Shown: positions 7,781-63,860 of the stretch, piece after piece
Layout: every line of letters starts with the position of its first letter
How positions within the stretch are numbered: the stretch's first letter is position 1
Assembly: GCA_902464575.1 (NCBI GenBank)
Contig: CABQJU010000007.1
Coordinates: 2,945-66,944 of the forward strand
DNA length: 64,000 nt
Origin: an uncultured Collinsella sp.
Lineage (GTDB): Bacteria; Actinomycetota; Coriobacteriia; Coriobacteriales; Coriobacteriaceae
Reading direction: 5' to 3'
Notes under the pieces: model-generated
Databases searched by the model: none
The model's input: only the letters and a program-made list of their open reading frames with translations
What the model was told of the DNA's origin: nothing
Position numbers and translations under genes: made by a program

Positions 7781-10700
7781 ATGTTCGAGAAGCGGCTCTT
7801 CTCCCTGGTTCCGCAGGCAACGCCCTACATTATGGCAAGCGTCCTGTTTAAGTGGATCGCGCTCATGGCAAACATCACGGTGATGTGGGTGCTTGCGCGC
7901 ATCTTGGGCGGCATCGTCACGGACGGCCTTTCCGCCGCGCTCGCCGTCGATGCCCTCGCACAGGCGGCCCTGCCGCTCGCCGCCGCCATCATCGTGCGCG
8001 CCGCCTCCATCTACCTGGCCCAACGCGCCGGCGACAAAGCCGCGTTCGAGGCCGTCCGCCGCGTGCGCTCGTTCGTCTACGACAAGCTCACCGCACTCGG
8101 CCCCTCCTACACCGAGACCGTCCCCACCGCCGAGGCCGTCCAGACCAGCGTCGAGGGCGCCACGCAACTCCAGGTGTACTTTGGCGGCTACCTGCCGCAG
8201 CTCTTCTTTGCCGGCTTGGCACCCATCACGCTGTTTGTACTGCTCGTGGGCCAGGCGGGTCTTCCCGCCGCGCTGCTGCTCGCCTGCGTTCCGGTCATCC
8301 CCGTCTCCATTATGATGGTCATGCGCAACGCCAAAAAGATCGGTGCCGAGTACTGGGGCAGCTATGTCGATCTTGGCGGCATGTTCCTGGAGGCCGTGCA
8401 GGGTCTCACCACCCTTAAGGTCTACCAGGCCGATCGAAGCTGGCACGAGCGCATCAACGCCGAGTCCGAGCGTTTCCGCACAGCGACCATGCACCTGCTG
8501 GTGATGCAGCTGCGCTCCATTTGCGTTATGGACCTGGTCGTCTATATGGGCGCCGCGCTCGGCATTATCGTGGCCGCACTGCAGCTCGCCACGGGCAAGA
8601 TCGGCTTTGAGGCTGCCTTCCTCATCGTCTTTCTGTCACAGGAGTTCTTTTTGCCTATGCGCCGCCTGGGATCGCTGTTCCACACGGCCATGAACGGCAT
8701 GGCCGCCTCGCGCCGCATGTTTGGCATTTTGGATACGCCCGAGCCCGAGCGCGGCGATGTTGAGCTTGATGGTCGCGGCGATATCGAGCTCGCAGGCGTG
8801 AGCTATGCCTACGGCGACCGCACCGTGCTGGACAGCGCCAGCGCGACCATTGCGCACGGCTCGCTCGTGGCACTCGTGGGCGAAAGCGGCGGCGGCAAGT
8901 CCACGCTCGCGGGGATTATCGCGGGCCGCAAGGACGCCTACCGCGGCAGCGTGCGCATTGGCGGCGTCGAGCTGCGCGATGTCACGGCCGCCTCACTCAT
9001 GCGCGCCGTCACGCTGGTGCCCACCAACGGCTACCTGTTTGCCGGCACCCTGCGCGACAACCTGCTGCTCGCCCAGCCCAACGCCACCGACACCGAGCTT
9101 TTGCGCGCGCTCGACCGCACGCGCGTGGCGGCCTTTGTGCGGGCCAACGGCGGGCTCGACATGGTGATTAACGAGGGCGGCACCAACCTTTCGGGCGGCC
9201 AGCGCCAGCGCGTGTGCATGGCCCGCGCCCTGCTGCACGACTCGCCGATCTATGTGTTTGACGAGGCGACGAGCAACGTCGATGCCGCAAGCGAGGCCGC
9301 GATCGGCGAGGTCATCGCGTCGCTTGCCGGCGGGCACACTGTAATTGTGGTGGCACATCGCCTGTCGACAATCGTGGACGCCGATCAGATCCTGGTGCTG
9401 GAACGCGGCCGCATTGCCGAGCACGGGACTCACGGCGAGCTCTTGGCCGCCGCGGGCGCCTATGCGCGCATGTGGAACAGCCAGAAGCAGCTCTCGGCAT
9501 ATGCGTATGCAGAGGGTGATGCTGAGGATGCCGGCGCGGTTGAGGCTGTTGACGGCAGCGCCGCCTGTGCCGATGGCCTCAACGGTACTAGTTCGTCTTC
9601 CGCTGCCGCGGCGCCTGACTCCGGCCGCGCCCGTCGCTCGGCGCCGTCCATCATGTGGCGCATGATGGGGCTCGTCCGACCGCTTGCTGGCTGGCTTGTG
9701 CTAGCCGTCGCGCTGGGCAGCATCGGCATGCTCACCGCCGCGTTCGTGCCGGCCTTTGGCGCCCTTGGCCTTATGGCCGCGCTGGGCCGCAACGCCTTGG
9801 GGCTTGGTCTTATCGCAGCATGCGCGGCCTGCGCCGCCTGCGGCATCGCACGCGGGCCGCTCCACTACGGCGAGCAGCTCTGCAACCATTACATCGCATT
9901 CCGCCTGCTCGCACACATTCGCGACCTGGTGTTTGGTGCCCTGCGCCGGCTCGCCCCCGCCAAGCTCGAGGGCCGCGGCAAGGGCGAGCTCGTGAGCCTG
10001 GTCACCTCGGATATCGAGCTGCTCGAGGTCTTCTACGCGCACACCATCTCGCCCATTGCCATCGCTCTGGTCTGCACCGCCGTCTTCGAGGGCTTCTTGC
10101 TGGCCGTAAGCCCCGAGCTCGCCGGCATCGCGCTTGTGGCCTACGCGGTCCTGGGTGTGCTGCTGCCTCTGGTCTCGGCCAAGGCATGCGGCACCACCGG
10201 TCGCCAGAGTCGCGAGGGAGTAGGCAAGCTGGGTGCCTTTGTGCTCGACAGCCTGCGCGGCGCGTCCGAGACCATTCAGTTTGCCGGCGGCGCCGATCGC
10301 AGCCGCGCTCTGGGCGAGCTGACCGAGCAAGTCGGCGCCGTGGATGCACGCCTCAAGCGCCGCCAGGCAGCCAGCGAGGCGGCGGCCGACGCGCTCATCC
10401 TCGTTGCCAACCTGGTGATGCTCGGACGTGCGCTGCAGCTGGTGGCTGCGGGGACGATTGATTTCGCCGCGGCATTTGTCGCCGTTTTCACCTTTGTTTC
10501 GTCCTTTGGCTCGGTAATGGCCGTGAGTCGTCTGGGTGCCTCGCTGCAGGAAACGCTCGCCTCGGGCACGCGCGTGCTCGATCTGCTCGACGAGCAGCCC
10601 CAGTGTGCCGAGGTCACGGACGGCCAGAACGTGGAGTTCGCCGGTGCCGCTGCCGAACATGTGAGCTTTAGCTATGTGGGTGGCGCGGGTGCCGACGATG

Positions 10701-11338
10701 CGGGACAGGCGGCGGGCGAGACGGCCGCAAGCCTCATCCTCGACGACGTGACCTGCACCTTTGCGCCCGGCACCATGACCTGCATCATGGGGCGCTCGGG
10801 TTCGGGCAAATCGACGCTGCTCAAGCTGCTCATGCGCTTTTGGGACCCCACCGCCGGCGCCATCACGGTAAGCGGCGTCGATGCCCGTCGTATCAACACG
10901 GCGAGCTTGCGCAGCCACGAGGCCTATATGACCCAGGACACGCACCTGTTCTGTGGCACCGTGCGCGAGAACCTGCTCGTCGCGCGTGCCGACGCCACCG
11001 ATGCCAAGCTGCTCGACGCCTGCCAGTCCGCCTCGCTCACCGCGCTCATCGACCGCCTGCCGCAGGGCCTCGACACCCCCGTCGCCGAGCTGGGCGACTC
11101 GCTCTCGGGCGGCGAGCGTCAGCGCATCGGCCTCGCGCGCATCTTCCTCAGCGACGCGCCCTTCATTCTGCTCGACGAGCCCACCAGCGCGCTCGATGCC
11201 CTCAACGAGGCAGCCGTGATGCAGGCGGTCGATGAGCTCAAGCGCCGCGGCAAGACCATCGTGCTGGTGAGCCACCGTGCCAGCACCTGCGCGTTTGCCG
11301 ATCGCTCGCTTTCGGTCGAACACGGGAGGCTCAGCTAA
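7781..11338 (+). CDS. cydDC: Fused CydD-CydC type ABC exporter (thiol reductant exporter family)
   Basis: 1185 aa; two TMD-NBD halves, each with Walker A (GESGGGKST, GRSGSGKST), ABC signature (LSGGQRQR, LSGGERQR) and Walker B; AGGAGG SD before the ATG. Confidence 0.85.
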   Translation: MFEKRLFSLVPQATPYIMASVLFKWIALMANITVMWVLARILGGIVTDGLSAALAVDALAQAALPLAAAIIVRAASIYLAQRAGDKAAFEAVRRVRSFVYDKLTALGPSYTETVPTAEAVQTSVEGATQLQVYFGGYLPQLFFAGLAPITLFVLLVGQAGLPAALLLACVPVIPVSIMMVMRNAKKIGAEYWGSYVDLGGMFLEAVQGLTTLKVYQADRSWHERINAESERFRTATMHLLVMQLRSICVMDLVVYMGAALGIIVAALQLATGKIGFEAAFLIVFLSQEFFLPMRRLGSLFHTAMNGMAASRRMFGILDTPEPERGDVELDGRGDIELAGVSYAYGDRTVLDSASATIAHGSLVALVGESGGGKSTLAGIIAGRKDAYRGSVRIGGVELRDVTAASLMRAVTLVPTNGYLFAGTLRDNLLLAQPNATDTELLRALDRTRVAAFVRANGGLDMVINEGGTNLSGGQRQRVCMARALLHDSPIYVFDEATSNVDAASEAAIGEVIASLAGGHTVIVVAHRLSTIVDADQILVLERGRIAEHGTHGELLAAAGAYARMWNSQKQLSAYAYAEGDAEDAGAVEAVDGSAACADGLNGTSSSSAAAAPDSGRARRSAPSIMWRMMGLVRPLAGWLVLAVALGSIGMLTAAFVPAFGALGLMAALGRNALGLGLIAACAACAACGIARGPLHYGEQLCNHYIAFRLLAHIRDLVFGALRRLAPAKLEGRGKGELVSLVTSDIELLEVFYAHTISPIAIALVCTAVFEGFLLAVSPELAGIALVAYAVLGVLLPLVSAKACGTTGRQSREGVGKLGAFVLDSLRGASETIQFAGGADRSRALGELTEQVGAVDARLKRRQAASEAAADALILVANLVMLGRALQLVAAGTIDFAAAFVAVFTFVSSFGSVMAVSRLGASLQETLASGTRVLDLLDEQPQCAEVTDGQNVEFAGAAAEHVSFSYVGGAGADDAGQAAGETAASLILDDVTCTFAPGTMTCIMGRSGSGKSTLLKLLMRFWDPTAGAITVSGVDARRINTASLRSHEAYMTQDTHLFCGTVRENLLVARADATDAKLLDACQSASLTALIDRLPQGLDTPVAELGDSLSGGERQRIGLARIFLSDAPFILLDEPTSALDALNEAAVMQAVDELKRRGKTIVLVSHRASTCAFADRSLSVEHGRLS

Positions 11339-19857: not shown

Positions 19858-21573
19858 CTATTGTGCCGAGCCCGCGACGGGCTCAAAATGCTTGTCCTTC
19901 ACGGCAGCGGCCAGGCGATCTGCCAGATTGCGTACGCGCGGATCCAGGCGCGCGGCACCCGGGTTGACAAAGAAGCGGGCCGTGCAGTCCATAATGCGAC
20001 CAGTAATAACCAGGTCGTTATCGCGCAGGGTGGCGCCCGTGGCGGTAATGTCCACGATGCGATCGGTCATACCGACGATGGGGCCCAGCTCGATGTTACC
20101 GTGCAGCGAGACAATATCGGCATTCACGCCGCGCTCGGCATACCAAACGCTCGCGATGCGCGGATACTTGGTGGCCACGCGAAGCGATCCGCGACGGGCG
20201 TAGTTGCGCTCGGCCTGGCCAGCGCGCCACGCGGGCTCCGCCTCAATGAAAGTGCACAGGCCGTAGCCCAGGTCGACCAGCTGCAGCAGGTTGAGGTCAG
20301 CCTCGATGAGCGAGTCCCAGCCGCAGATGCCGCAATCGGCGCCGCCGCAGCCCACAAAGGCGGGCGCGTCGCTGGGGCGCACGATGACAAACTCGATATC
20401 TCCGACCGCGCCCTCACCGGCACGCGTGTCGCGACCGCGCACGATCAGGTGACGACCGGGATCGCGCAGCTCAGCGACGTCTAAGCCCGCTGCCTCGAGC
20501 ACGTCGAGCGTGTCGGCCTTGAGCGAGCCCTTGGGCACGGCAATGCGCAGCGGACCCTCGGCGCCACGGCCCACAGCGTGATCGCCGTCGGAAGCGGCGT
20601 CCTCGGCCGAGGTGCGCGCGGCCTCCAGACGCTCGAGCGAAAAGGCGAAGCCCGCCGCCGGCACCTCGATGCCGTCGCCGAACGCGCCGGTAAAGATGGA
20701 GTCGTAGCGGCCGCCCGAGCCCACCGGATCGGGCAGGCCACCGGCGTAGGCCTTAAAGACCAGGCCCGTGTAGTAATCAAAAGAGTTCATGATGGAGAAG
20801 TCGAACGACAGCACCTGGGCGTCCTCGGGAGCCAGGCCCTCGACCAGAGCACGCAACTCGCGCGTCAGCGGCGCGACGATACCGGCGGCCTCCAGCAGCG
20901 TGTCCACGCGGTCGAGCACCTCGGCACCGCCGTGCAGACGCGGCAGCTCGCAAATGGCGGCCTTGACGGCATCGGACTCGACGCTTGCCGCCACGCGGGC
21001 ATCGAGGCCCACAAAGTCGTTGGCGTGCACGCAGCACAGCGCCTCGGCAGCCAGCTCGCGATCCTCGCACGCCGCGAGCAGCTCCTTAAACGGGCGTACA
21101 CTACCTGCGATGATGCGTGCATCGGGCAGCGCCAGCTTGCGCACCGCCTCGGCCACGAGCGAGACAATCTCGACATCGCCCGCGGTATCGCCCGCACCGA
21201 TAAGCTCAAAGCCCAACTGGGTGAACTGACGCGAGCCACCGGCATTGCGCTGGCACTCGCGGACCACCGGTGCCTCATAGCGCAGGCGCAGCGGCAGGTC
21301 GGCCGCGCGCATACGGGTCGAGACCAGGCGTACGATGGGCAGCGTGTTGTCGGGACGAACCACCAGCAGGCGACCATCGTCGTCAAAGAGCTTAAACGGC
21401 GTATCCGCGATACGGCCACCTTCCTCGAGCGAACCCTTGTCCTCGAGCAGCGGCGTTTCGACCGGAAGGTAATGATGCTCCCTAAAACAGCCCTTCACCG
21501 TCAGCGCAATCTCCTCGCGCGCCTGAGCCTCCTCGGGCAATATGTCCCGGAATCCCCACGGTGTGGCCGTCAT
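19858..21573 (-). CDS. hisZG: Fusion of ATP phosphoribosyltransferase regulatory subunit (HisZ) and short-form catalytic subunit (HisG)
   Basis: 571 aa. The N-terminal ~330 aa are HisRS-like without an anticodon domain (FRDILPEE ... RPDNTLP ... QLGFELIG ... YYTGLVF ... GGRYD). The C-terminal ~220 aa are HisG-S (LRIAVPKGSL ... DLGYG ... RVATKYP ... DITATGATL). Confidence 0.85.
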   Translation of the reverse strand: MTATPWGFRDILPEEAQAREEIALTVKGCFREHHYLPVETPLLEDKGSLEEGGRIADTPFKLFDDDGRLLVVRPDNTLPIVRLVSTRMRAADLPLRLRYEAPVVRECQRNAGGSRQFTQLGFELIGAGDTAGDVEIVSLVAEAVRKLALPDARIIAGSVRPFKELLAACEDRELAAEALCCVHANDFVGLDARVAASVESDAVKAAICELPRLHGGAEVLDRVDTLLEAAGIVAPLTRELRALVEGLAPEDAQVLSFDFSIMNSFDYYTGLVFKAYAGGLPDPVGSGGRYDSIFTGAFGDGIEVPAAGFAFSLERLEAARTSAEDAASDGDHAVGRGAEGPLRIAVPKGSLKADTLDVLEAAGLDVAELRDPGRHLIVRGRDTRAGEGAVGDIEFVIVRPSDAPAFVGCGGADCGICGWDSLIEADLNLLQLVDLGYGLCTFIEAEPAWRAGQAERNYARRGSLRVATKYPRIASVWYAERGVNADIVSLHGNIELGPIVGMTDRIVDITATGATLRDNDLVITGRIMDCTARFFVNPGAARLDPRVRNLADRLAAAVKDKHFEPVAGSAQ

Positions 21574-40901: not shown

Positions 40902-40956
40902 GCCATCTTTATATCAGACAACCAGTCCGGTGTATCGCGCTCAGGACCCGAGAGGG

Positions 40957-41081
40957 CCGGGACAGTCCGAGAGGCATAAGGTTGATCGCGAGTTCCGCAC
41001 GAGCCGGAGAGCACTTAATGTGCTCTCCGTGCGAGCAGGACTGCCCGAGCAGGCAACCTTATGCCTCTCGGACTGTCCCGG
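40957..41081. repeat. Core-in-palindrome element, copy A: 69-nt conserved core flanked by a 28-bp perfect inverted repeat
   Basis: 40957-40984 is the exact reverse complement of 41054-41081. The core at 40985-41053 contains the hairpin GGAGAGCAC-TTAAT-GTGCTCTCC. Confidence 0.9.
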
Positions 41082-41093
41082 ACCAAGCCGCAG

Positions 41094-53904: not shown

Positions 53905-56358
53905 ATGCTGCAAAAAATCCAACGCTTTGGCGGGGCAATGTTCGCGCCCGCCATGCTGTTTTCCATATCGGGCCTTATGGTCGGCGTCTCCGCCCTCGCA
54001 ACGTCTGCGGATATCGTCGGCGACCTCGCCGTATACGGAACCCCTTGGTACGTTTTTTGGACTATCATTCAGCGCGGCTCGTGGACGGTCTTTAAACGAC
54101 TTCCGCTCCTTTTTGCCGTAGCGCTTCCCATCGGCCTTGCCCAAAAGCAACCGGCACGTTGTTGCCTCGAGGCGCTCGTGGCTTATTTTGCCTATTGCTT
54201 CTTTTTGAGCGAGATCATCAAGCTAAGCGGAGACAACCTTGGACTTAAGTACCCGTCGTCTTTGACCCCCGCTAGCGGCATTACCATCATCGACGGCATC
54301 AAGACGCTCGACACCGGCATTATCGGCCCGCTAGCGGTATCGGCAACCGTCGTCGCCATCCATGACCGCTTCTACGATGCCAAGGTCCCCGATTGGCTCG
54401 GCACCTTCTCGGGTTCCTCGCTGGTCTACCTCATCAGCTTTTTTGCCGTGTTCGCCCTTGCCGCCATCTCGGCCGCCATCGTGCCCTTCGTATACGCAGC
54501 GACCGAAACGCTGCGCCACGCACTTGTGGGCGTCGGCCCCCTCGGCGTGGGTATCTTTGCGTTTTTGGAGCGAGCACTCGAGCCCATGGGGCTGCACCAC
54601 CTGCTCTACATGCCTATCTACTACGACAATTTAGTTATTAACGACGGCATCTACGCCACGTGGACCAACTTGCTTCCCATCCTCTCGCACAGCACGCGCC
54701 CCCTCAATGAGCTTGCGCCGTGGGCCGGTTTTACCGCCACCGGCTGGGTCAAGCTCTTTGGCCTTCCTGCCATCGCGGCTGCGTTCTACTCCACCGCAAA
54801 GCCCGAGCGCCGCGCTGCCCTCAAGGTCATCCTGGTTCCCGCCATTGTTGCCTCAGTGGTCTGCGGCGTCACCGAACCGCTCGAGTTTCTCTTTATGTTC
54901 ACCTATCCCGGACTCTTTTTGCTCTATGCCGTCCTATCTTCCTGCCTCGCCATGGCTATGAACTTCTTTGGCGTCGTCGGCATCTTCTCGGGCGGTTTTA
55001 TGGAAATGGCTGCCTTCAACTTTATCCCGCTCATGCGGACGCATGCCGGCTCCTACCTTTTGGCACTCGGAATCGGACTCATCTTTAGCGTCATCTTCTT
55101 TCTGAGCTTTCGAGGTCTTATCCTGACCTTTGACCTTAAAACCCCGGGACGCGAGGACCATATCGCCAGCAACGCGGCGCTCTCGCGCTTGACGGGAGAC
55201 GACGTTGACGAAAAGCGCACATCCAAAACCGGCGCTTCCGACGACCAGGCCTCACAAGATCATCTGCTCGCCGAGCAGGTTGTGACGCTTCTGGGCGGCG
55301 TCTCCAACATTGTGGGCGCAACCAACTGCGCCACGCGGCTGCGCGTCGAAGTCGTGGACCCCTCCATCGTCGCGGACAATGCGACCTTTGTCGCAGCGGG
55401 TGCCAAAGGCCTCATCATTACGGGCAAGACCGCCCAGGTGATCATCGGCATCTCCGTTCCCCGCGTTAAAGAGCATTTTGACCAGATCATGGGCCTCGAG
55501 CCGGAATTTGTGCCCACCACCTCGGCCTCCCCTGCCGCCAGCGCAGCCCATAAGCGCGGCGATATTTGCTTCTTCGATATCGACGGAACGCTCGCCTGGC
55601 AAGACCCCAGGCTCGCCCAAGACCTTCCCGAAGACGAGCGGGACCTCTCCCCCTATCCCAACGAGGCGGTTTCGCAGGCAATCCGCGAGTTTGTCGCCAA
55701 CGGCAACATGGCCTTTATCTGCACGGGACGTACCCTGAGCTGCATCCACCCCAAACTTCTTGAGCTGCCCTGGACCGGCATCGTCTGTCTTGCGGGCGGT
55801 TACGCCGAGATCAACGGACACGCAATTCGCGATCTGTCGATGACACCCAGCATGCTGCAGCATCTTGCCCCCTATCTTGAGCAATCGGGCGAGGTCATCC
55901 GCTTTGAGGGCCTCAACGGCGTCGTGCGCATGAGTGCCGATGCGCCCGATGCTCCCGGATACGCGCGCACCCTGGGCGACGCAGTCACGCAGCTGCAACA
56001 TTACAGTGTCTACAAGATCTTGATGTCTACATCACTCGCCAACCACATCGCTCAAGATAAGGCACTTGAGCCGCTACTGTGCTTTAACGAGCTCGAACTC
56101 GAGGTAACCGAAATCTCGCCCCGCGAATGCACGAAGCGCGGGGGCATCCAGTCTGTACTCGACGCCCTCGATCCCCACCACGGAACCGTATACGGCATTG
56201 GCGACGCCAGCAATGACGTCTCGCTGATGAACGCCGTCGATGTCGGTATCGCCATGGGCAATGCGCCGGACTATCTCAAGGATAAGGCCGATTACGTGAC
56301 CGACACCGTCGATCACGACGGTGTCGTTGCGGCGCTCGAGCATTTTGGGCTGATTTAG
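53905..56358 (+). CDS. PTS glucose-family EIIC-EIIB fused to a Cof-type (HAD-IIB) sugar-phosphate phosphatase
   Basis: 817 aa. EIIC with VTEPLEF; EIIB with NCATRLRV phospho-Cys motif; C-terminal ~270 aa with FFDIDGTL (HAD motif I), ICTGR and GIGDASNDVSLM (motif IV). GGGAGG SD. Confidence 0.85.
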   Translation: MLQKIQRFGGAMFAPAMLFSISGLMVGVSALATSADIVGDLAVYGTPWYVFWTIIQRGSWTVFKRLPLLFAVALPIGLAQKQPARCCLEALVAYFAYCFFLSEIIKLSGDNLGLKYPSSLTPASGITIIDGIKTLDTGIIGPLAVSATVVAIHDRFYDAKVPDWLGTFSGSSLVYLISFFAVFALAAISAAIVPFVYAATETLRHALVGVGPLGVGIFAFLERALEPMGLHHLLYMPIYYDNLVINDGIYATWTNLLPILSHSTRPLNELAPWAGFTATGWVKLFGLPAIAAAFYSTAKPERRAALKVILVPAIVASVVCGVTEPLEFLFMFTYPGLFLLYAVLSSCLAMAMNFFGVVGIFSGGFMEMAAFNFIPLMRTHAGSYLLALGIGLIFSVIFFLSFRGLILTFDLKTPGREDHIASNAALSRLTGDDVDEKRTSKTGASDDQASQDHLLAEQVVTLLGGVSNIVGATNCATRLRVEVVDPSIVADNATFVAAGAKGLIITGKTAQVIIGISVPRVKEHFDQIMGLEPEFVPTTSASPAASAAHKRGDICFFDIDGTLAWQDPRLAQDLPEDERDLSPYPNEAVSQAIREFVANGNMAFICTGRTLSCIHPKLLELPWTGIVCLAGGYAEINGHAIRDLSMTPSMLQHLAPYLEQSGEVIRFEGLNGVVRMSADAPDAPGYARTLGDAVTQLQHYSVYKILMSTSLANHIAQDKALEPLLCFNELELEVTEISPRECTKRGGIQSVLDALDPHHGTVYGIGDASNDVSLMNAVDVGIAMGNAPDYLKDKADYVTDTVDHDGVVAALEHFGLI

Positions 56359-58579: not shown

Positions 58580-58654
58580 TGGGACGTAGTTCAACGGTAG
58601 AACTCCGGTTTTTGGTGCCGGCTGTTGGGGGTTCGAATCCCTCCGTCCCAGCCA
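58580..58654 (+). tRNA. tRNA-Gln (anticodon TTG)
   Basis: 75 nt; acceptor TGGGACG/CGTCCCA; anticodon stem CCGGT/GCCGG with loop TTTTGGT; T-arm GGGGG-TTCGAAT-CCCTC; CCA encoded. Confidence 0.88.
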
Positions 58655-58663
58655 TTAAAATTG

Positions 58664-58700
58664 AGCGCCCTGAGCCCATAACGGCCCAGGGCGCTTTCTT
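58664..58700 (+). terminator. tRNA-Gln terminator
   Basis: agcgccctg(a)gcc-loop-ggcccagggcgct followed by ttctt. Confidence 0.7.
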
Positions 58701-58701
58701 G

Positions 58702-58728
58702 TGGGCAAGCGGAGGGATTCGAACCCGC
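58702..58728 (-). other. Inverted tRNA-like T-arm/acceptor fragment
   Basis: Minus strand GCGGG-TTCGAAT-CCCTC-CGCTTGCCCA shares GGGTTCGAATCCCTCCG with the adjacent tRNA-Gln but lies in inverted orientation. No 5' acceptor partner or anticodon arm. Confidence 0.4.
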
Positions 58729-58865
58729 AAGGGTGCAGAGCTGAGGAAACGCGAAGGCGCCCCAAGCCCATTAGGACCAAGAGCGTCTTACATCTTGAAA
58801 TATCAGCCCAATTCCGAAAAGCGAGCCGCCTTCTACAACGTGCCGTGTGGCCCCGACGGGCCGGG

Positions 58866-58910
58866 CATTAAGTTTGTCGCGAGTTCCGCACGAACAGGAG
58901 GCCACTTAAC
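58866..58910 (+). repeat. Truncated copy C of the conserved core (left half only)
   Basis: gcattaagtttgtcgcgagttccgcacgaacaggaggccacttaac matches the left arm end plus the first ~33 nt of the core of copies A and B; no right arm. Confidence 0.7.
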
Positions 58911-58931
58911 CTCGATGTTTTGGACGTGACA

Positions 58932-59037
58932 GCGAGAGGGGCCCTGGTATGGCAAGGTGACGTGAAACAAGGCGGCGCTGACCTTCTGGTCGCGCCGCCG
59001 AAGTTGAACGTCAGATTGCCGTGCCAGGGCCCCTCGC
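58932..59037. repeat. 106-nt long imperfect hairpin (candidate structured RNA)
   Basis: Arms gcgagaggggccctggtatggcaaggtgacgt / acgtcagattgccgtgccagggcccctcgc with an apical GGCGGCGC(T)GACC-TTCT-GGTCGCGCCGCC hairpin. Confidence 0.7.
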
Positions 59038-59041
59038 AGCG

Positions 59042-59072
59042 TCAAGAAGACCGCCGTTCGGTAGAACGGCGG
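59042..59072 (-). terminator. Terminator of the Toprim-domain gene
   Basis: Minus strand ccgccgttc-tacc-gaacggcgg followed by tcttctt, starting 3 nt after the stop codon. Confidence 0.6.
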
Positions 59073-59074
59073 AG

Positions 59075-61291
59075 CTAATTGTTCAGCATGCGGTCGAAGC
59101 TTCCCGAGTCGCCATCCCGATAGTCTGCGGTCATCAGAATCTCCTGCGGAATGCGCCCGCCTTCACGTAGCACGTTGCGGAACTGCACGCGCGTAACCAT
59201 GGGCAGATCCTTGATCGTCGCTGCCAGGTTCTGCGGCACGCCCTGGTTGGCAGCCGCGGGCTCGCACTCGCCGCCGGCCTTCACGCGACGCTTATGCTCG
59301 GCGAGCATGGCGCGGTACATGCCGGCATGCAGGCGAATCTCAACCACATTGGCATTGCGAGCCTGTTCGACGATGCGCGCGCCCTCGCGATCGATATCGC
59401 CTACGTAGTAGACGTAGTTAAAGCGATAGCCAATCTCGGCCAGATAATCGTCCAAGGCATGCGAGACGCTCGCCTTGCATCCGCCGCCAAAAATCACGCC
59501 GCCCACCTTGATGCCAAAGAGCTTGGCGTGCTTGCGGCCACGCAGCAGCTTGACGATCTCGTCGTAGGTGTCCAGGTTCTCGACCATAATGAACGGCTTG
59601 TCGGCTCCCAGCGTAAAGAAGCCCGTAAAGTGCACGGGGCGATTGGGGGCGACCTTGATCGCCTGCATGCTGATGCCCTTTTCGGTCATACGCCTGATCA
59701 AGCGCTCACCGTGCTTGCCGTCAAAAGCCTTCTCGTCGTTAAAGATCTGGTAGGCACGCTGGCGGCGCGAGGCAACCGGCGTATCGGCACCTCGGTTCTG
59801 CTCGATCCAAGCCTGGATGATTGCGATTTCCTCGGCAATCTTGCGGTTGGACATCTCGTTGTGCTGAGTGCGCTGCGGAGCCTTTTTGCCGTCCTTGCCC
59901 TCGACCTTTACGATCTGTGTCTGCTGCTCCTTAATCTTGGAGAGCGCCATTGGCGTGGGAACGACCTTGAGCAGCTGCCTGCCCAGGACACGGGCCAGAG
60001 CAAACGCCGAAACCTCGCCATGAGCGGGCTGCTCAGGCTGCTGGGCGGCCGCATCGTTTGCAGTCGGTTTGGGCTGCGCCTGGGATTTGTGCTTGGAATC
60101 TGCCTGAGCTTTGCGCTCTTGCTTTGGCGCGGACGAGCTCTTTTGCGAACGTTCAGGCTTGTCCCCCTTCGCCGGCTGGCGCTTGGGCTGCTCCACCGGG
60201 GTCTCAGCCTTCACATCCTTGTTTTGCGTTGTCGCCTTCTCGGCCACGGTTTCGGCATTTGAGCCACGTCCGCCACGGTGACGACGACGGCGGGGCTTGC
60301 TCGAAGCGCTCTCCCCCGCCTGTTTATCAGCGGACTGTTGAACTTTGACCTCGGTGTCAGCCGCAGGCTGCGACTCGGAAGGTTGCTGCTCGCGAGCCGC
60401 CGGCTCAACGGTTTTCTCGGTTTGTTCGGCCTTATCGGCCTGAGCGGTCGAAGCCGGCTCGCCCTTCTCCTGACGCTTTACGGGATACGCGCGCCCTGCA
60501 AAACCGCGGCCGGGACGACACGAACCCGGAGCCCTCTTGGCAGACTCCTCAACATCGTCTGCAACCTCGGAAGGCTCTTCAACCTCACGCGCGACATCCT
60601 GCTGCGCAGCCTTGAAGTGAGCACCGCGACGACGCTTGGGCTCTTGGGCCTCCACGGGCTTTTGTTCCTTCGCGGGCTCCTGCGACTCAGCGGCAACCTC
60701 GGTCTCAACAGCCTCAGCATCCGTCTCACCCTTTCGAGCAACGGCGCGACGGAAGCGCTCCTGCTGGGCGCGGCGCTGCGCATCGCGCTTGCCACCCCCG
60801 CCAAAACCGCCGCGTCCTGCCTTGGCCGTAAAGGCACGCACGACGTTCTCATCGAGCAACTCATCGGTATCGACATGCTCACGCGGGGCAACTTCTTCCA
60901 CAGCAGGCACGTCAGCGGGATCCTCGACGACAAAATCCTCGACGGACTCGGCAGGCTGCTCCTGGGCATCGCGGATCTCGGCATTGATGGTATAGAACGC
61001 CGGGCGCCCGTTAATGCCGCTACCCTCGATCTTGGTCACGATATTTGCCGCGATAAGCTCATCGCGCATCGCCTTGGTGTCACATTCCTTATCGACGGAG
61101 CGGAAAATTTGCGCCAGCGCGCTCGACTTGATCTTGAGCGCCTTGCGGCAAAGCAGGTCGTAGGCAACCAGCTTGGCACGCTCAGCAGAAAGCGATGTCT
61201 GGCTGCTCAGACGCTCAGCCAGGGCATCGACATTATTTTGGTTATCGGAATATACCGTCTTGGCCACGGGGCCCCTTTCATATGTACACAT
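59075..61291 (-). CDS. Orphan JetD/MksG-like (DUF2220-type) Toprim-domain protein with N-terminal wHTH-like domain and a long low-complexity linker
   Basis: 738 aa (alternative GTG start at 61267 after AAAGGGG). The C-terminus has FIMVENLDTYDEI, VIFGGGCKAS, YYVGDIDREGARIVEQAR and LHAGMYRAMLAEH in the order seen in JetD/TopoVI-A Toprim domains. The middle ~300 aa are K/E/Q/P/A-rich. Confidence 0.55.
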   Translation of the reverse strand: MCTYERGPVAKTVYSDNQNNVDALAERLSSQTSLSAERAKLVAYDLLCRKALKIKSSALAQIFRSVDKECDTKAMRDELIAANIVTKIEGSGINGRPAFYTINAEIRDAQEQPAESVEDFVVEDPADVPAVEEVAPREHVDTDELLDENVVRAFTAKAGRGGFGGGGKRDAQRRAQQERFRRAVARKGETDAEAVETEVAAESQEPAKEQKPVEAQEPKRRRGAHFKAAQQDVAREVEEPSEVADDVEESAKRAPGSCRPGRGFAGRAYPVKRQEKGEPASTAQADKAEQTEKTVEPAAREQQPSESQPAADTEVKVQQSADKQAGESASSKPRRRRHRGGRGSNAETVAEKATTQNKDVKAETPVEQPKRQPAKGDKPERSQKSSSAPKQERKAQADSKHKSQAQPKPTANDAAAQQPEQPAHGEVSAFALARVLGRQLLKVVPTPMALSKIKEQQTQIVKVEGKDGKKAPQRTQHNEMSNRKIAEEIAIIQAWIEQNRGADTPVASRRQRAYQIFNDEKAFDGKHGERLIRRMTEKGISMQAIKVAPNRPVHFTGFFTLGADKPFIMVENLDTYDEIVKLLRGRKHAKLFGIKVGGVIFGGGCKASVSHALDDYLAEIGYRFNYVYYVGDIDREGARIVEQARNANVVEIRLHAGMYRAMLAEHKRRVKAGGECEPAAANQGVPQNLAATIKDLPMVTRVQFRNVLREGGRIPQEILMTADYRDGDSGSFDRMLNN

Positions 61292-61450
61292 ATACGTCTA
61301 TATGGTACAACGCGCGCCCTTATCCACGCAAAACATCTGCGAGAACACTCGAGCGTCACCCGCTTTTGCATGAAAAAAGACCGAGCCCGCGAAGTCGCGG
61401 ACCCGGTCTTTCCGAGTCAAATGGATGGGAGATTCAACCCGTCCGACCGA

Positions 61451-63340
61451 CTAGGCCTTGGCGGCCTCGGCGTCGGCAGGAGCCTCAGCGGCAGCGGCGC
61501 GACCGTACTCGGCCTTGCCCATATCGGACCACTCGGGCTCCTCATCAGGCATGGAGCCAGCCTCCTTGCCGAAGAACTCCTTGAGGCAGTTGACGGCAAC
61601 GATGAGGCCCAGGACCATCAGCAGGACGGCAAAGACGAGCTGCAGGCCCTTGGTGGCGGCGACGGAGACGGCGGCCGTGGTGGCGGTAGCCGGGATGGTA
61701 CCGAAGAAACCGTAGGCCTGGACGGCGGTCATGCAGCCCATGGCGCTCTGGACCAGCGAGGTGAAGGTGCAGCAGAGCAGGAAGACGACGGGCACGTAGA
61801 GCATCCAGCCCTTGCGGCCGGTGCACTTGCAGAACACGGCGAGGGTGATCATGGTCATGCCGCCGAGCAGCTGGTTGGAAGCACCAAAGAGCGGCCAGAT
61901 GTTGGCATAGCCACCAAAAGCGAGAGCGAGACCGGGAAGCAGGGTAACGACCGTGGCGAACCAGGGGTTGCCGAGGACCTTCATGTAGCCGGCCTTGGAC
62001 TCGATGGCCAGGGCGTCGTTGGTCTGGGCAAAGAACTCGGAGAACGAGGTGCGGGCGATGCGGGCGACGGCGTCGAGCGAGGTCAGGGCCAGAGCGGAGA
62101 CGTTCATGGTCATGAAGACGGTAGCGAGCGTGCCGTCAACACCGAAGGCCTGCATACCGCGGGAGATGCCGGCGGCGAAGATCTGGAACGGGGTGGAAGC
62201 GACACCGGCGTTGAGAGCGCCAGTACCGGCGGTGTTCATATCGGAGAACATGATGCCGGCGACGATGATGGCAAGGATGCCAACGAAGGACTCGACGATC
62301 ATTGCACCGTAACCGACCTTGACGGCGTCCTGCTCCTTCTCGACCTGCTTGGAAGAGGTGCCGGAAGAAACGAGGCTGTGGAAACCGGAGAGAGCACCGC
62401 ATGCGACGGAGACGAACAGGACCGGGAACATCATGCCGGAGGCAGTGGAGAAGCCGGTGAAGACCGGAGCGGTGATAGTGGCCTGACCGTTGACACCCAG
62501 GACGACGATGCCGAGGACAGCGCAGACGATCATGACGATCATCATGATGGAAGTGAGGTAGTCACGCGGGGTCTTGAGCATCTGGATGGGCATAGCGCCA
62601 GCGAAGACCAGGTAGACCATGACGACGGCGAACCACTGGAACTTATCCAGGTAGACCGGGAACTGCATACCGACGGCGAACATGAGAACCATGAGGATAA
62701 CGCCGGTGACGAACTCGGCAGCGCCGGTGAGGTTGAACTTCTTCTGGGCCCAACCAAAGGCGATAGCGACGAAGGTGAACAGGATGGAGATGGTACCAGC
62801 GCAGCCGGCGGCATAGGACTTGGTGAAGTCGATGGCACCGGTAGCAGCACCAGAAGCGTCAACGGCCGGGGTGAACATGAACGTCTTGCAGACCATGTCG
62901 GTGAAGGCGGCGATGACGATGATGCAGAACAGCCAGCAGAACAGCAGGAACAGGCGACGGCCGGTCTTGCCGATGTACTTCTCGATGAGCTGAGCGAGCG
63001 ACTTGCCGTTGTTCTTCATCGAAGCGTACAGGGCACCAAAGTCGTGGACGGCGCCAAAGAAGATGCCGCCGACGAGGACCCAGAGCACGACGGGCAGCCA
63101 GCCAAAGGCCATGGCGACGATCGTACCCGTAACAGGGCCAGCACCGCAGATCGAGCTGAACTGGTGCGAGAACGCAGTGAAGGCGGAGACGGGCGAGAAG
63201 CTGTTGCCGTCCTTCATGCGCTTGGCCGGCGTGAGGGCCTCTTTGTCAACGCCCCACTTGTTGGCCAGCCAGCGGCCATAGCCCAGATAGCCGCAGGCGA
63301 GCACCGCCGCGGTCACAACCATGAGCAAAACTCCGTTCAT
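61451..63340 (-). CDS. cstA: Carbon starvation protein A (peptide/pyruvate transporter family)
   Basis: 629 aa, polytopic; CstA motifs FSHQFSSICGAGPVTG and HSLVSSGTSSKQ; Ala-rich C-terminal tail. Confidence 0.92.
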   Translation of the reverse strand: MNGVLLMVVTAAVLACGYLGYGRWLANKWGVDKEALTPAKRMKDGNSFSPVSAFTAFSHQFSSICGAGPVTGTIVAMAFGWLPVVLWVLVGGIFFGAVHDFGALYASMKNNGKSLAQLIEKYIGKTGRRLFLLFCWLFCIIVIAAFTDMVCKTFMFTPAVDASGAATGAIDFTKSYAAGCAGTISILFTFVAIAFGWAQKKFNLTGAAEFVTGVILMVLMFAVGMQFPVYLDKFQWFAVVMVYLVFAGAMPIQMLKTPRDYLTSIMMIVMIVCAVLGIVVLGVNGQATITAPVFTGFSTASGMMFPVLFVSVACGALSGFHSLVSSGTSSKQVEKEQDAVKVGYGAMIVESFVGILAIIVAGIMFSDMNTAGTGALNAGVASTPFQIFAAGISRGMQAFGVDGTLATVFMTMNVSALALTSLDAVARIARTSFSEFFAQTNDALAIESKAGYMKVLGNPWFATVVTLLPGLALAFGGYANIWPLFGASNQLLGGMTMITLAVFCKCTGRKGWMLYVPVVFLLCCTFTSLVQSAMGCMTAVQAYGFFGTIPATATTAAVSVAATKGLQLVFAVLLMVLGLIVAVNCLKEFFGKEAGSMPDEEPEWSDMGKAEYGRAAAAEAPADAEAAKA

Positions 63341-63707: not shown

Positions 63708-63860
63708 GCCCCTGAGAGCCGCGGGAGCCGGGCGGCGCATATGAACTTTCCTGCTCTACAGTCCTGCGCAAGACGGAAAGCACATTAAGTGCTTTCCTTT
63801 GCGTGCGGAGCTCGCGATAAAGTTCATATGCGCCGCCCGGCTCCCGCGGCTCTCAGGGGC
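63708..63860. repeat. Core-in-palindrome element, copy B: the same 69-nt core (inverted) flanked by a 42-bp perfect inverted repeat
   Basis: 63708-63749 is the exact reverse complement of 63819-63860. The reverse complement of the core at 63750-63818 aligns with 40985-41053 over the same 69-nt length. Confidence 0.9.

Follow-up and report, generated by a model that had tools for sequence, protein, structure and literature searches.

The nuclease JetD has been described as occurring exclusively with Wadjet SMC (structural maintenance of chromosomes) complexes (10.1101/2023.11.03.565488), and its published plan is an N-terminal CAP-type module to which a Toprim domain is flexibly attached (10.1101/2023.11.03.565488; PMC10586767). 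In the E. coli JET system JetD by itself shows essentially no activity and is autoinhibited (PMC10586767; 10.1101/2023.11.03.565488); JetD alone cuts DNA at high concentration (PMC10586767), and MksG of C. glutamicum needs no MksBEF to cleave DNA in vitro, its E236A and D279A mutants being impaired in cleavage (PMC10123090). Canonical type III Wadjet operons encode JetD3 (340 residues) together with JetA3 (535 residues), JetB3/DUF6063 (228 residues) and JetC3 (1477 residues); the jetD-jetA-jetB-jetC examples used here for comparison are loci L094-L096 and the C. perfringens plasmid NZ_CP013615.1. We analyzed a JetD3-like gene encoded alone in 64,000 nucleotides of DNA from an uncultured Collinsella sp. 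(GenBank assembly GCA_902464575.1, contig CABQJU010000007.1, positions 2,945 to 66,944 of the forward strand), a stretch that we call the window and whose coordinates we use throughout. The gene is a complete open reading frame (ORF) of 738 residues counted from its first ATG, located at 59075..61291 on the minus strand, stop codon included. We favor the reading that its product is a solitary Toprim nuclease derived from JetD3 and, as we infer, independent of SMC proteins, and we give this reading a probability of roughly 55%.

The JetD3-like Toprim module

The C-terminal module of the protein (residues ~474-738) is a clear homolog of the type III Wadjet nuclease JetD3. The PADLOC JetD3 model PDLC00592 matches residues 487-725 with E 4.4e-31, over positions 109-339 of its 346, and hhalign, run with a profile built from the long-variant orthologs P0129-P0132 against 30 canonical JetD3 proteins, returns a probability of 99.9% and E 1e-36 over canonical positions 105-343. 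At the DNA level, an operon-encoded JetD3 used as a tblastn query matches window positions 59120-59833 (E 1e-11). An earlier note on this DNA had proposed a JetD/MksG-family Toprim protein, and the PADLOC match, with the metal-binding residues intact, bears this out. All five motifs that it quoted were found between residues 507 and 666, namely ASRRQRAYQIFNDEKAFDGKHGERLIRRM (507-535), FIMVENLDTYDEI (567-579), VIFGGGCKAS (599-608), YYVGDIDREGARIVEQAR (628-645) and LHAGMYRAMLAEH (654-666).

The catalytic positions stand out in every comparison. Across 38 diverse homologs, D519-E520-K521, E571-N572, G604, Y629, G631, D632, D634, G637, Y659 and R713-I-P-Q-E717 are invariant, and the Toprim metal ligands E571 and D632/D634 are strictly conserved in several alignments. 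E571 (codon 59579..59581, minus strand), the Toprim catalytic glutamate, lies in the VENLD motif, is invariant in three alignments and corresponds to MksG E236; the invariant DxD metal-binding motif D632-I-D634 (codons 59390..59398, minus strand), within GDIDREG, corresponds to MksG D279. Both motifs align with PDB sequences of C. glutamicum MksG and E. coli JetD, VENLD with MksG ILMVENLD and GDIDREG with MksG YWGDLDLDG and JetD YWGDMDSWG. PDB profile searches reach MksG/JetD at these catalytic motifs only (E 1.1-2.7), and a PDB sequence search with the single protein gave no match. The C-terminal RIPQE motif (residues 713-717; 59141..59155, minus strand) is invariant in solitary and canonical JetD3 alike.

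Two structural units make up the module. A helical arm (residues 474-540; 59672..59872, minus strand), with AlphaFold2 helices at 474-498, 509-517 and 525-537, contains RRQRAYQIFNDEKAF with the invariant D519-E520-K521 and aligns with canonical JetD3 positions ~105-165; the Toprim domain and C-terminal helices follow (residues 556-738; 59078..59626, minus strand), as placed by PADLOC, hhalign, AlphaFold2 and Foldseek. The AlphaFold2 model of residues 470-738 is confident, with a predicted local distance difference test score (pLDDT) of 90.5. Its best PDB match in Foldseek is Topo VI-A (9o8p_A, probability 0.97), and the full-length model matches Topo VI-A 1d3y_B (probability 0.99), these matches having E 5e-3 and TM-scores of 0.18-0.38.

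That Topo VI-A gives the best structural matches could suggest a Topo VI-A/Spo11-like transesterase, acting through covalent tyrosyl-DNA intermediates, rather than a hydrolytic nuclease. Candidate tyrosines exist: Y100, in the wing of the N-terminal head, is invariant among 12 long-variant orthologs, Y629 and Y659 are invariant among the 38 diverse homologs, and the MksG mutant Y258A is impaired (PMC10123090). However, the sequence homology is to JetD3 and not to Topo VI-A, the CAP domains of JetD and MksG have no catalytic tyrosine (PMC10586767, PMC10123090), and the 365 residues of an insert leave the winged helix uncoupled from the Toprim domain. Nor was a GHKL B-subunit noted near the gene in any locus, no search having been aimed at one. 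We regard a transesterase as highly improbable.

Winged-helix head and disordered insert

The N-terminal head (residues 14-105; 60977..61252, minus strand) is modeled by AlphaFold2 at pLDDT ~90 with an H-H-E-H-H-E-E topology, and Foldseek matches it to the winged helix-turn-helix domains of Fur, PerR, MarR and ArsR (probability 0.8-0.98). Its profile aligns with canonical JetD3 positions 4-70 (hhalign E 1e-4, probability 58%), and in P0378, a short relative, the match to the JetD3 profile extends through the head, covering positions 4-339. The head is conserved in every long ortholog and detectable in the short relative P0137. Since it is present in relatives, is spanned by the JetD3 profile in P0378 and aligns with JetD3 positions 4-70, it is probably the normal JetD3 N-terminal (CAP-like) domain and no new fusion, a conclusion that we grade as moderate and not strong because its basis is a moderate hhalign score and one profile extension. 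The winged helix proposed earlier for the head is therefore real, whereas the novelty claimed for its fusion falls away; with the head a standard JetD3 domain, the insert would be the sole architectural novelty.

This insert of ~365 residues (residues 108-472; 59876..60970, minus strand) lies between the winged helix and the arm, where canonical JetD3 has a connector of ~35 residues. It is predicted to be disordered, with pLDDT below 50 except for a helix at residues 169-187, and so exceeds the ~300 residues of very long disordered spacer first described. An acidic block (residues 108-150) is followed by a basic, RG-rich part: in the window protein the first 60 residues of the insert carry a net charge of -12 and the remainder +13. 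Among orthologs the insert ranges from ~110 to ~395 residues; its opening third exceeds the remainder in acidity in 11 of 11 and is net acidic in 10 of 11. RG-rich motifs include FTAKAGRGGFGGGG, RPGRGFAGR and RRRRHRGGRGS. The first of them (residues 154-167) carries the FxxKxGRG motif and together with the helix at 169-187 (pLDDT ~81) occupies 60731..60832 on the minus strand; the motif recurs as FVSKVGRGA in P0122, P0123, P0125 and P0128, and the region is 96-97% identical within Collinsella. Tandem repeats were considered as the cause of the length variation and set aside, as the insert contains no tandem DNA repeats. Judged from sequence comparison, the insert is a lineage-specific feature of the Collinsella protein. 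The same arrangement recurs in another lineage, distantly related and represented by P0222, P0224, P0255 and P0258, in which the head and the JetD3 Toprim module flank a long insert that is rich in A, E, P and K and bears RG-rich motifs (RPGRG in P0255).

Across 80 Collinsella genomes, identity is 99.1% in the head and 99.9% in the C-terminal module; within the insert it is 96-97% at residues 108-190, 78% at 191-430 and 98.6% at 431-473. The middle of the insert evolves fast, yet the frame is always kept, the ORF being intact in all 80 genomes with every length difference in frame. The head and the C-terminal module are under strong purifying selection and form one polypeptide. A GC-rich genome (~60%), in which long spurious ORFs are common, and a linker with no detectable fold might be taken as signs of an annotation artefact, that is, two genes or an over-extended ORF whose linker is untranslated. 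The frame, open in 80 of 80 genomes with indels in frame only, speaks against this, as do the colinearity of head, insert and C-terminal module in every long ortholog and the union of the same head and C-terminal module on one polypeptide in short homologs, and we consider such an artefact extremely improbable.

The resemblance of the head to transcription-factor domains and the basic tail behind it also allow the idea that the protein is no longer a nuclease but a nucleoid-associated or regulatory DNA-binding protein, for which the Toprim fold would be a dimerisation scaffold. Head and insert together (59876-61252) weakly match linker histone H1/H5 (E 0.16-0.9); the matches are not significant (best E 0.16), and we treat them as an architectural analogy only. 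Against a purely structural role for the Toprim fold, the metal-binding and family-invariant residues are strict across solitary lineages that are 26-50% identical, a degree of conservation unexpected of a scaffold. We judge loss of nuclease function to be very unlikely.

SMC partners, inheritance and genomic surroundings

The search for partners covered the 64 kb of the window, 80 Collinsella loci with up to 10 kb on each side, and one 900 kb record; the 80 loci kept from the genome-contig scan are all from Collinsella, so that they serve to assess conservation and supply no outgroups. With JetA3, JetB3 and JetC3 of a canonical operon as queries, tblastn found no match in the window, the 80 Collinsella loci or the other solitary loci, whereas JetD3 of the same operon matches all of them. 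JetA3 and JetC3 probes of PLSDB found nothing in NZ_OY725717.1, the 900 kb record of C. aerofaciens, and as a positive control the same search recovered the C. perfringens plasmid with its full type III operon. The other window ORFs longer than 700 residues encode a fused ABC transporter, glycogen phosphorylase and a fusion of a phosphotransferase system (PTS) protein with a HAD phosphatase, to which are added two antisense ORFs, left unscanned, that overlap opposite-strand genes (glgP for one, the JetD3-like gene and cstA for the other). No SMC-size candidate was found among the scanned ORFs of this size, the two antisense ORFs being outside the scan. The negative tblastn searches and the lack of an SMC-size product among the scanned ORFs agree with the observation in the earlier note that the 64 kb hold no jetABC. 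Two candidates were examined and rejected: the ORF at 7781-11338 has SMC_N matches but encodes a fused ABC transporter, and a 1197-residue coiled-coil neighbor of the short relative P0391, with weak LmuB/JetC matches, is a sortase-anchored surface protein (signal peptide, CAP domain, LPQTG).

Searching 1.84 billion cluster representatives with residues 460-738 returned only 337 relatives, among which are about a dozen long proteins (486-770 residues, 49-86% identity), followed by a sharp drop to proteins of 340-455 residues that are at most 36% identical; viral contigs contained no relatives. A simple neighbor-joining tree rooted on a canonical JetD3, to be taken as indicative only, places a set of ~380-residue proteins as sister to the Collinsella clade (midpoint rooting was uninformative owing to the long Collinsella branch and was replaced by this root). 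All four sampled members of the sister clade (P0378, P0140, P0384 and P0391) are solitary, and so is the distant P0163. The orphan state, which had been presented as unusual, is thus not peculiar to the Collinsella gene, as all five of the short relatives inspected (four from the sister clade) are solitary too.

Two loci of relatives deserve mention. At L090 (11022-12827), a JetD3 (P0383) is followed by a 601-residue ORF in which JetA3 (583 bits) is fused to the last ~130 residues of JetC3; the locus appears to be a decayed type III Wadjet from which JetB and most of JetC have been deleted, and it may be a snapshot of a JetD becoming solitary. At L088 (11660-18722), P0391 is followed immediately by the REase, Z and X/MID/RNaseH genes of a pPIWI_RE system and has a large helicase upstream, which places P0391 in a defence island, unlike the Collinsella gene.

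In Collinsella the gene has a fixed place. It is preceded by cstA in 70 of 70 testable genomes and followed by a peptidoglycan-binding gene in 60 of 62, and this order persists even in orthologs of only ~50% identity, those of the C. tanakaei cluster among them. Farther upstream in C. aerofaciens are acpS, yjeF, alr, udg, tsaE and tsaD; P0255, an insert-bearing protein 26% identical to the window protein and encoded in a 67%-GC genome (L099, 10001-12103), lies directly after acpS-yjeF-alr-udg-tsaE, whose products are 45-69% identical to their Collinsella counterparts. Based on the synteny conserved within Collinsella, in the ~50%-identical orthologs and beside the same cluster at P0255, the solitary gene is passed on vertically in Collinsella at one fixed position of the chromosome.

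These data bear on the possibility that the protein is merely a displaced JetD, loaded and activated in trans by a jetABC cluster elsewhere as an ordinary Wadjet effector. Type I JetD does require JetABC for specific cleavage (PMC10586767; 10.1101/2023.11.03.565488), and our search covered the 64 kb window, flanks of at most 10 kb elsewhere and one 900 kb record. However, in canonical type III operons jetD comes first and is tightly packed with jetA, and Wadjet itself is patchy, found in defence islands and in ~5-10% of genomes (PMC10586767), whereas this gene sits among housekeeping genes at a site conserved in all Collinsella genomes that we examined and also in a distant lineage resembling Coriobacteriia. 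With type III JetA and JetC not found in 900 kb of C. aerofaciens and five independent short relatives likewise solitary, we consider displacement unlikely.

Motifs of the insert (FxxKxGRG with its helix, and residues 431-473) might instead recruit the protein to a non-cognate partner, for example the housekeeping Smc-ScpAB or some other machine bound to DNA, that would confer spatial or structural specificity on the cutting. The insert segments 108-190 and 431-473 are as conserved as the folded domains (96-99%, versus 78% elsewhere in the insert), FxxKxGRG is kept in orthologs about 66-86% identical, and the N-terminal module of JetD docks on an SMC head (10.1101/2023.11.03.565488). Yet the conserved adjacent genes are housekeeping genes only, and the short relatives, which lack an insert, are solitary as well, so that the insert is no universal solution to the absence of JetABC. 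We find this alternative doubtful.

The limits of the gene itself can be refined. Its true start is probably the GTG at 61267 (61265..61267, minus strand; codon 9 of the longer ORF), which would give 730 residues and is favored because orthologs and the PGAP model begin there; by inspection, a ribosome-binding site, GAAAGGGG, lies just upstream. The PGAP model of the C. aerofaciens counterpart has 723 residues, the linker being shorter in that strain. This counterpart, WP_195568736.1 of C. aerofaciens TSDC17.2-1.1 (NZ_OY725717.1), has an identical C-terminal module and is labeled a hypothetical protein, as are thousands of ~95%-identical Collinsella proteins; the host of the window DNA is C. 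aerofaciens or a near relative of it. As first reported, the gene lies between cstA (61451-63340, minus strand), its upstream neighbor, and tRNA-Gln (58580-58654, plus strand) on the other flank. It also looks monocistronic with a terminator of its own, a terminator-like hairpin with a 9 bp stem, 7 GC pairs and a weak T-run following the stop codon directly (59051..59072, minus strand) and recovered when the downstream region is folded, and a separate cstA terminator (61373..61410, minus strand; hairpin and T6) divides it from cstA.

The structured non-coding DNA noted earlier beside the gene consists of a repeated palindromic element and a tRNA-fragment scar with no link to the gene. The element belongs to a family of long imperfect palindromes in intergenic DNA (58830-59040, 40950-41085 and 63720-63850 in the window) with the core ATCGCGAG(T/C)TCCGCACG...GCACTTAA; the copy downstream of the JetD3-like gene forms a ~115-nt hairpin (z = -10), and Rfam gave no match for the element at either the gathering or the E ≤ 1 threshold. 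Many public Collinsella contigs end ~90 nt after the stop codon of the gene and ~2.5 kb ahead of its start codon, which would fit the interruption of assemblies by repeats. A T-arm-like sequence, GGTTCGAATCCC, had suggested a tmRNA downstream of the gene, a candidate discarded since ARAGORN and Rfam (gathering and E ≤ 1) detected none and the region holds the palindromic repeat and an inverted tRNA-Gln fragment instead. This fragment, an inverted partial copy of the T-arm and 3' half of tRNA-Gln (GGTTCGAATCCCTCCG; 58664-58730, minus strand), lies just downstream of tRNA-Gln. At the ortholog locus L083 a small island (HTH, a 535-residue protein, HicA and HTH_17) is inserted at the position of the scar. 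Taken together, the inverted copy and the island at the same position make the tRNA-Gln locus look like an integration hotspot that leaves scars.

Three further observations concern other genes and records. A 571-residue ORF at 19858-21573 (minus strand), beside hisD, combines a histidyl-tRNA synthetase-like (HisZ-type) domain with HisG (ATP phosphoribosyltransferase) and appears to be a HisZ-HisG fusion. An 817-residue ORF at 53905-56358 (plus strand) joins PTS EIIC-EIIB to a Cof-type HAD phosphatase (Hydrolase_3), an unusual fusion also present in NZ_OY725717.1. The latter record (L097; 899,693 bp), filed in PLSDB as 'plasmid 6' of C. aerofaciens TSDC17.2-1.1, carries alr, tsaD, acpS, cstA and glgP and is evidently a misfiled piece of chromosome; its sibling records of 423 and 433 bp likewise carry the plasmid label.

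Proposed mechanism and comparison with known systems

If the protein is indeed a solitary, SMC-independent nuclease, it would dimerise through its Toprim domain, as do MksG and JetD, and cut DNA with Mg2+ or Mn2+, no SMC motor of its own being required; DNA would be bound by the winged helix together with the basic, RG-rich portion of the insert. Because an unrestrained JetD would be toxic (PMC10586767), some restraint would be needed, which might be imposed by the acidic block or by the winged helices adopting a closed arrangement. Its role could be the constitutive restriction of foreign DNA or chromosome maintenance, and not a mobile defence-island function. The premise of the earlier note that JetD is active only when loaded by JetABC proves too strong in view of the cleavage by MksG without MksBEF (PMC10123090) and by JetD alone at high concentration (PMC10586767), and the term 'self-targeting' for this nuclease is without support.

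Several points weigh against this interpretation. Autonomy is not the default of the JetD family, as E. coli JetD illustrates; nuclease activity and SMC independence are putative for the solitary homologs, and the roles suggested for the insert are hypotheses drawn from its charge pattern and composition. A partner acting in trans is possible, as the searches used type III and not type I/II JetABC probes and left ~60% of the genome of C. aerofaciens uncovered. The Pfam model JetD_C (PF09983), which is passed by all 30 canonical members and by P0255 (32 bits), scores the protein below its gathering threshold (18.7 bits versus 22; E 0.0012), and an NCBIfam profile search gave no match. Foldseek returned no match at E ≤ 1e-3, and the solved type I JetD/MksG chains are absent from its top 50; no solved structure of a type III JetD is apparent from the PDB matches or in PMC10586767. 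The domain matches expected at the outset therefore came out in part, with the Topo VI-A Toprim fold recovered by Foldseek, PF09983 reached below threshold only and DUF3322 absent, and the suggested comparison with JetD structures led to Topo VI-A and not to JetD.

A wider and tentative proposal, which we consider possible, is that a Wadjet nuclease has been domesticated in Collinsella, and possibly across the Coriobacteriia, as an SMC-independent, self-regulated protein with a housekeeping or constitutive anti-foreign-DNA role, the insert replacing the function of JetABC. The basic RG-rich tail would then tether DNA, in analogy to a linker histone, and the acidic block would autoinhibit the enzyme as a DNA mimic or intramolecular brake. 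JetD is regarded as a dangerous nuclease that depends on JetABC for control, which makes a catalytically intact lone homolog of interest and raises the questions of how a Toprim nuclease is targeted and restrained without loop extrusion and of whether defence effectors can be domesticated for chromosomal tasks. The gene is a vertically inherited core gene of an abundant human-gut genus, and a system made of one polypeptide would be a natural and simpler one in which to study JetD catalysis. If the protein restricts incoming DNA, the poor genetic tractability of Collinsella could also be linked to it.

By homology the protein is a member of the JetD family, in its type III branch, and it is not a Wadjet system by the four-gene operon definition. 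In the searchable library we found no paper on a standalone or orphan DUF2220/JetD and none linking Collinsella with Wadjet; the solitary gene is nonetheless not categorically new. Its closest described relatives are the JetD3 proteins of type III Wadjet (PADLOC PDLC00591-594), to which it is homologous over arm and Toprim domain, with a winged helix in the same place and the invariant DEK, ENxD, YxGDxDxxG and RIPQE motifs in common. It differs from them in being only ~25% identical, scoring ~106 bits on the JetD3 model against ~265 for operon-encoded members, and in being a core syntenic chromosomal gene with no adjacent jetA3, jetB3 or jetC3 rather than a defence-island gene. With type I JetD/MksG (C. 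glutamicum MksG, PDB 8B7F; E. coli JetD, 8Q72; P. aeruginosa JetD, 7TIL) it shares the E...DxD ligands of a Toprim nuclease and a flexibly joined CAP-like N-terminal module, but sequence similarity is confined to the two catalytic motifs (E 1.1-2.7), the DUF3322 N-terminal domain is lacking, and those proteins, unlike this one, are encoded with and act in JetABC or MksBEF complexes. Topo VI-A/Spo11 provides the best structural matches to the C-terminal model and the same plan of CAP winged helix and Toprim domain; it differs in that no sequence homology is detectable past the Toprim motifs, no B-subunit was noted (none was specifically sought) and there is no evidence of a catalytic tyrosine. 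MksBEF offers the reciprocal case, a motor proposed to have lost its nuclease, whereas here a nuclease is kept without the motor, and it indicates that the modules of Wadjet are separable and that the remaining part can be retained for a chromosomal function.

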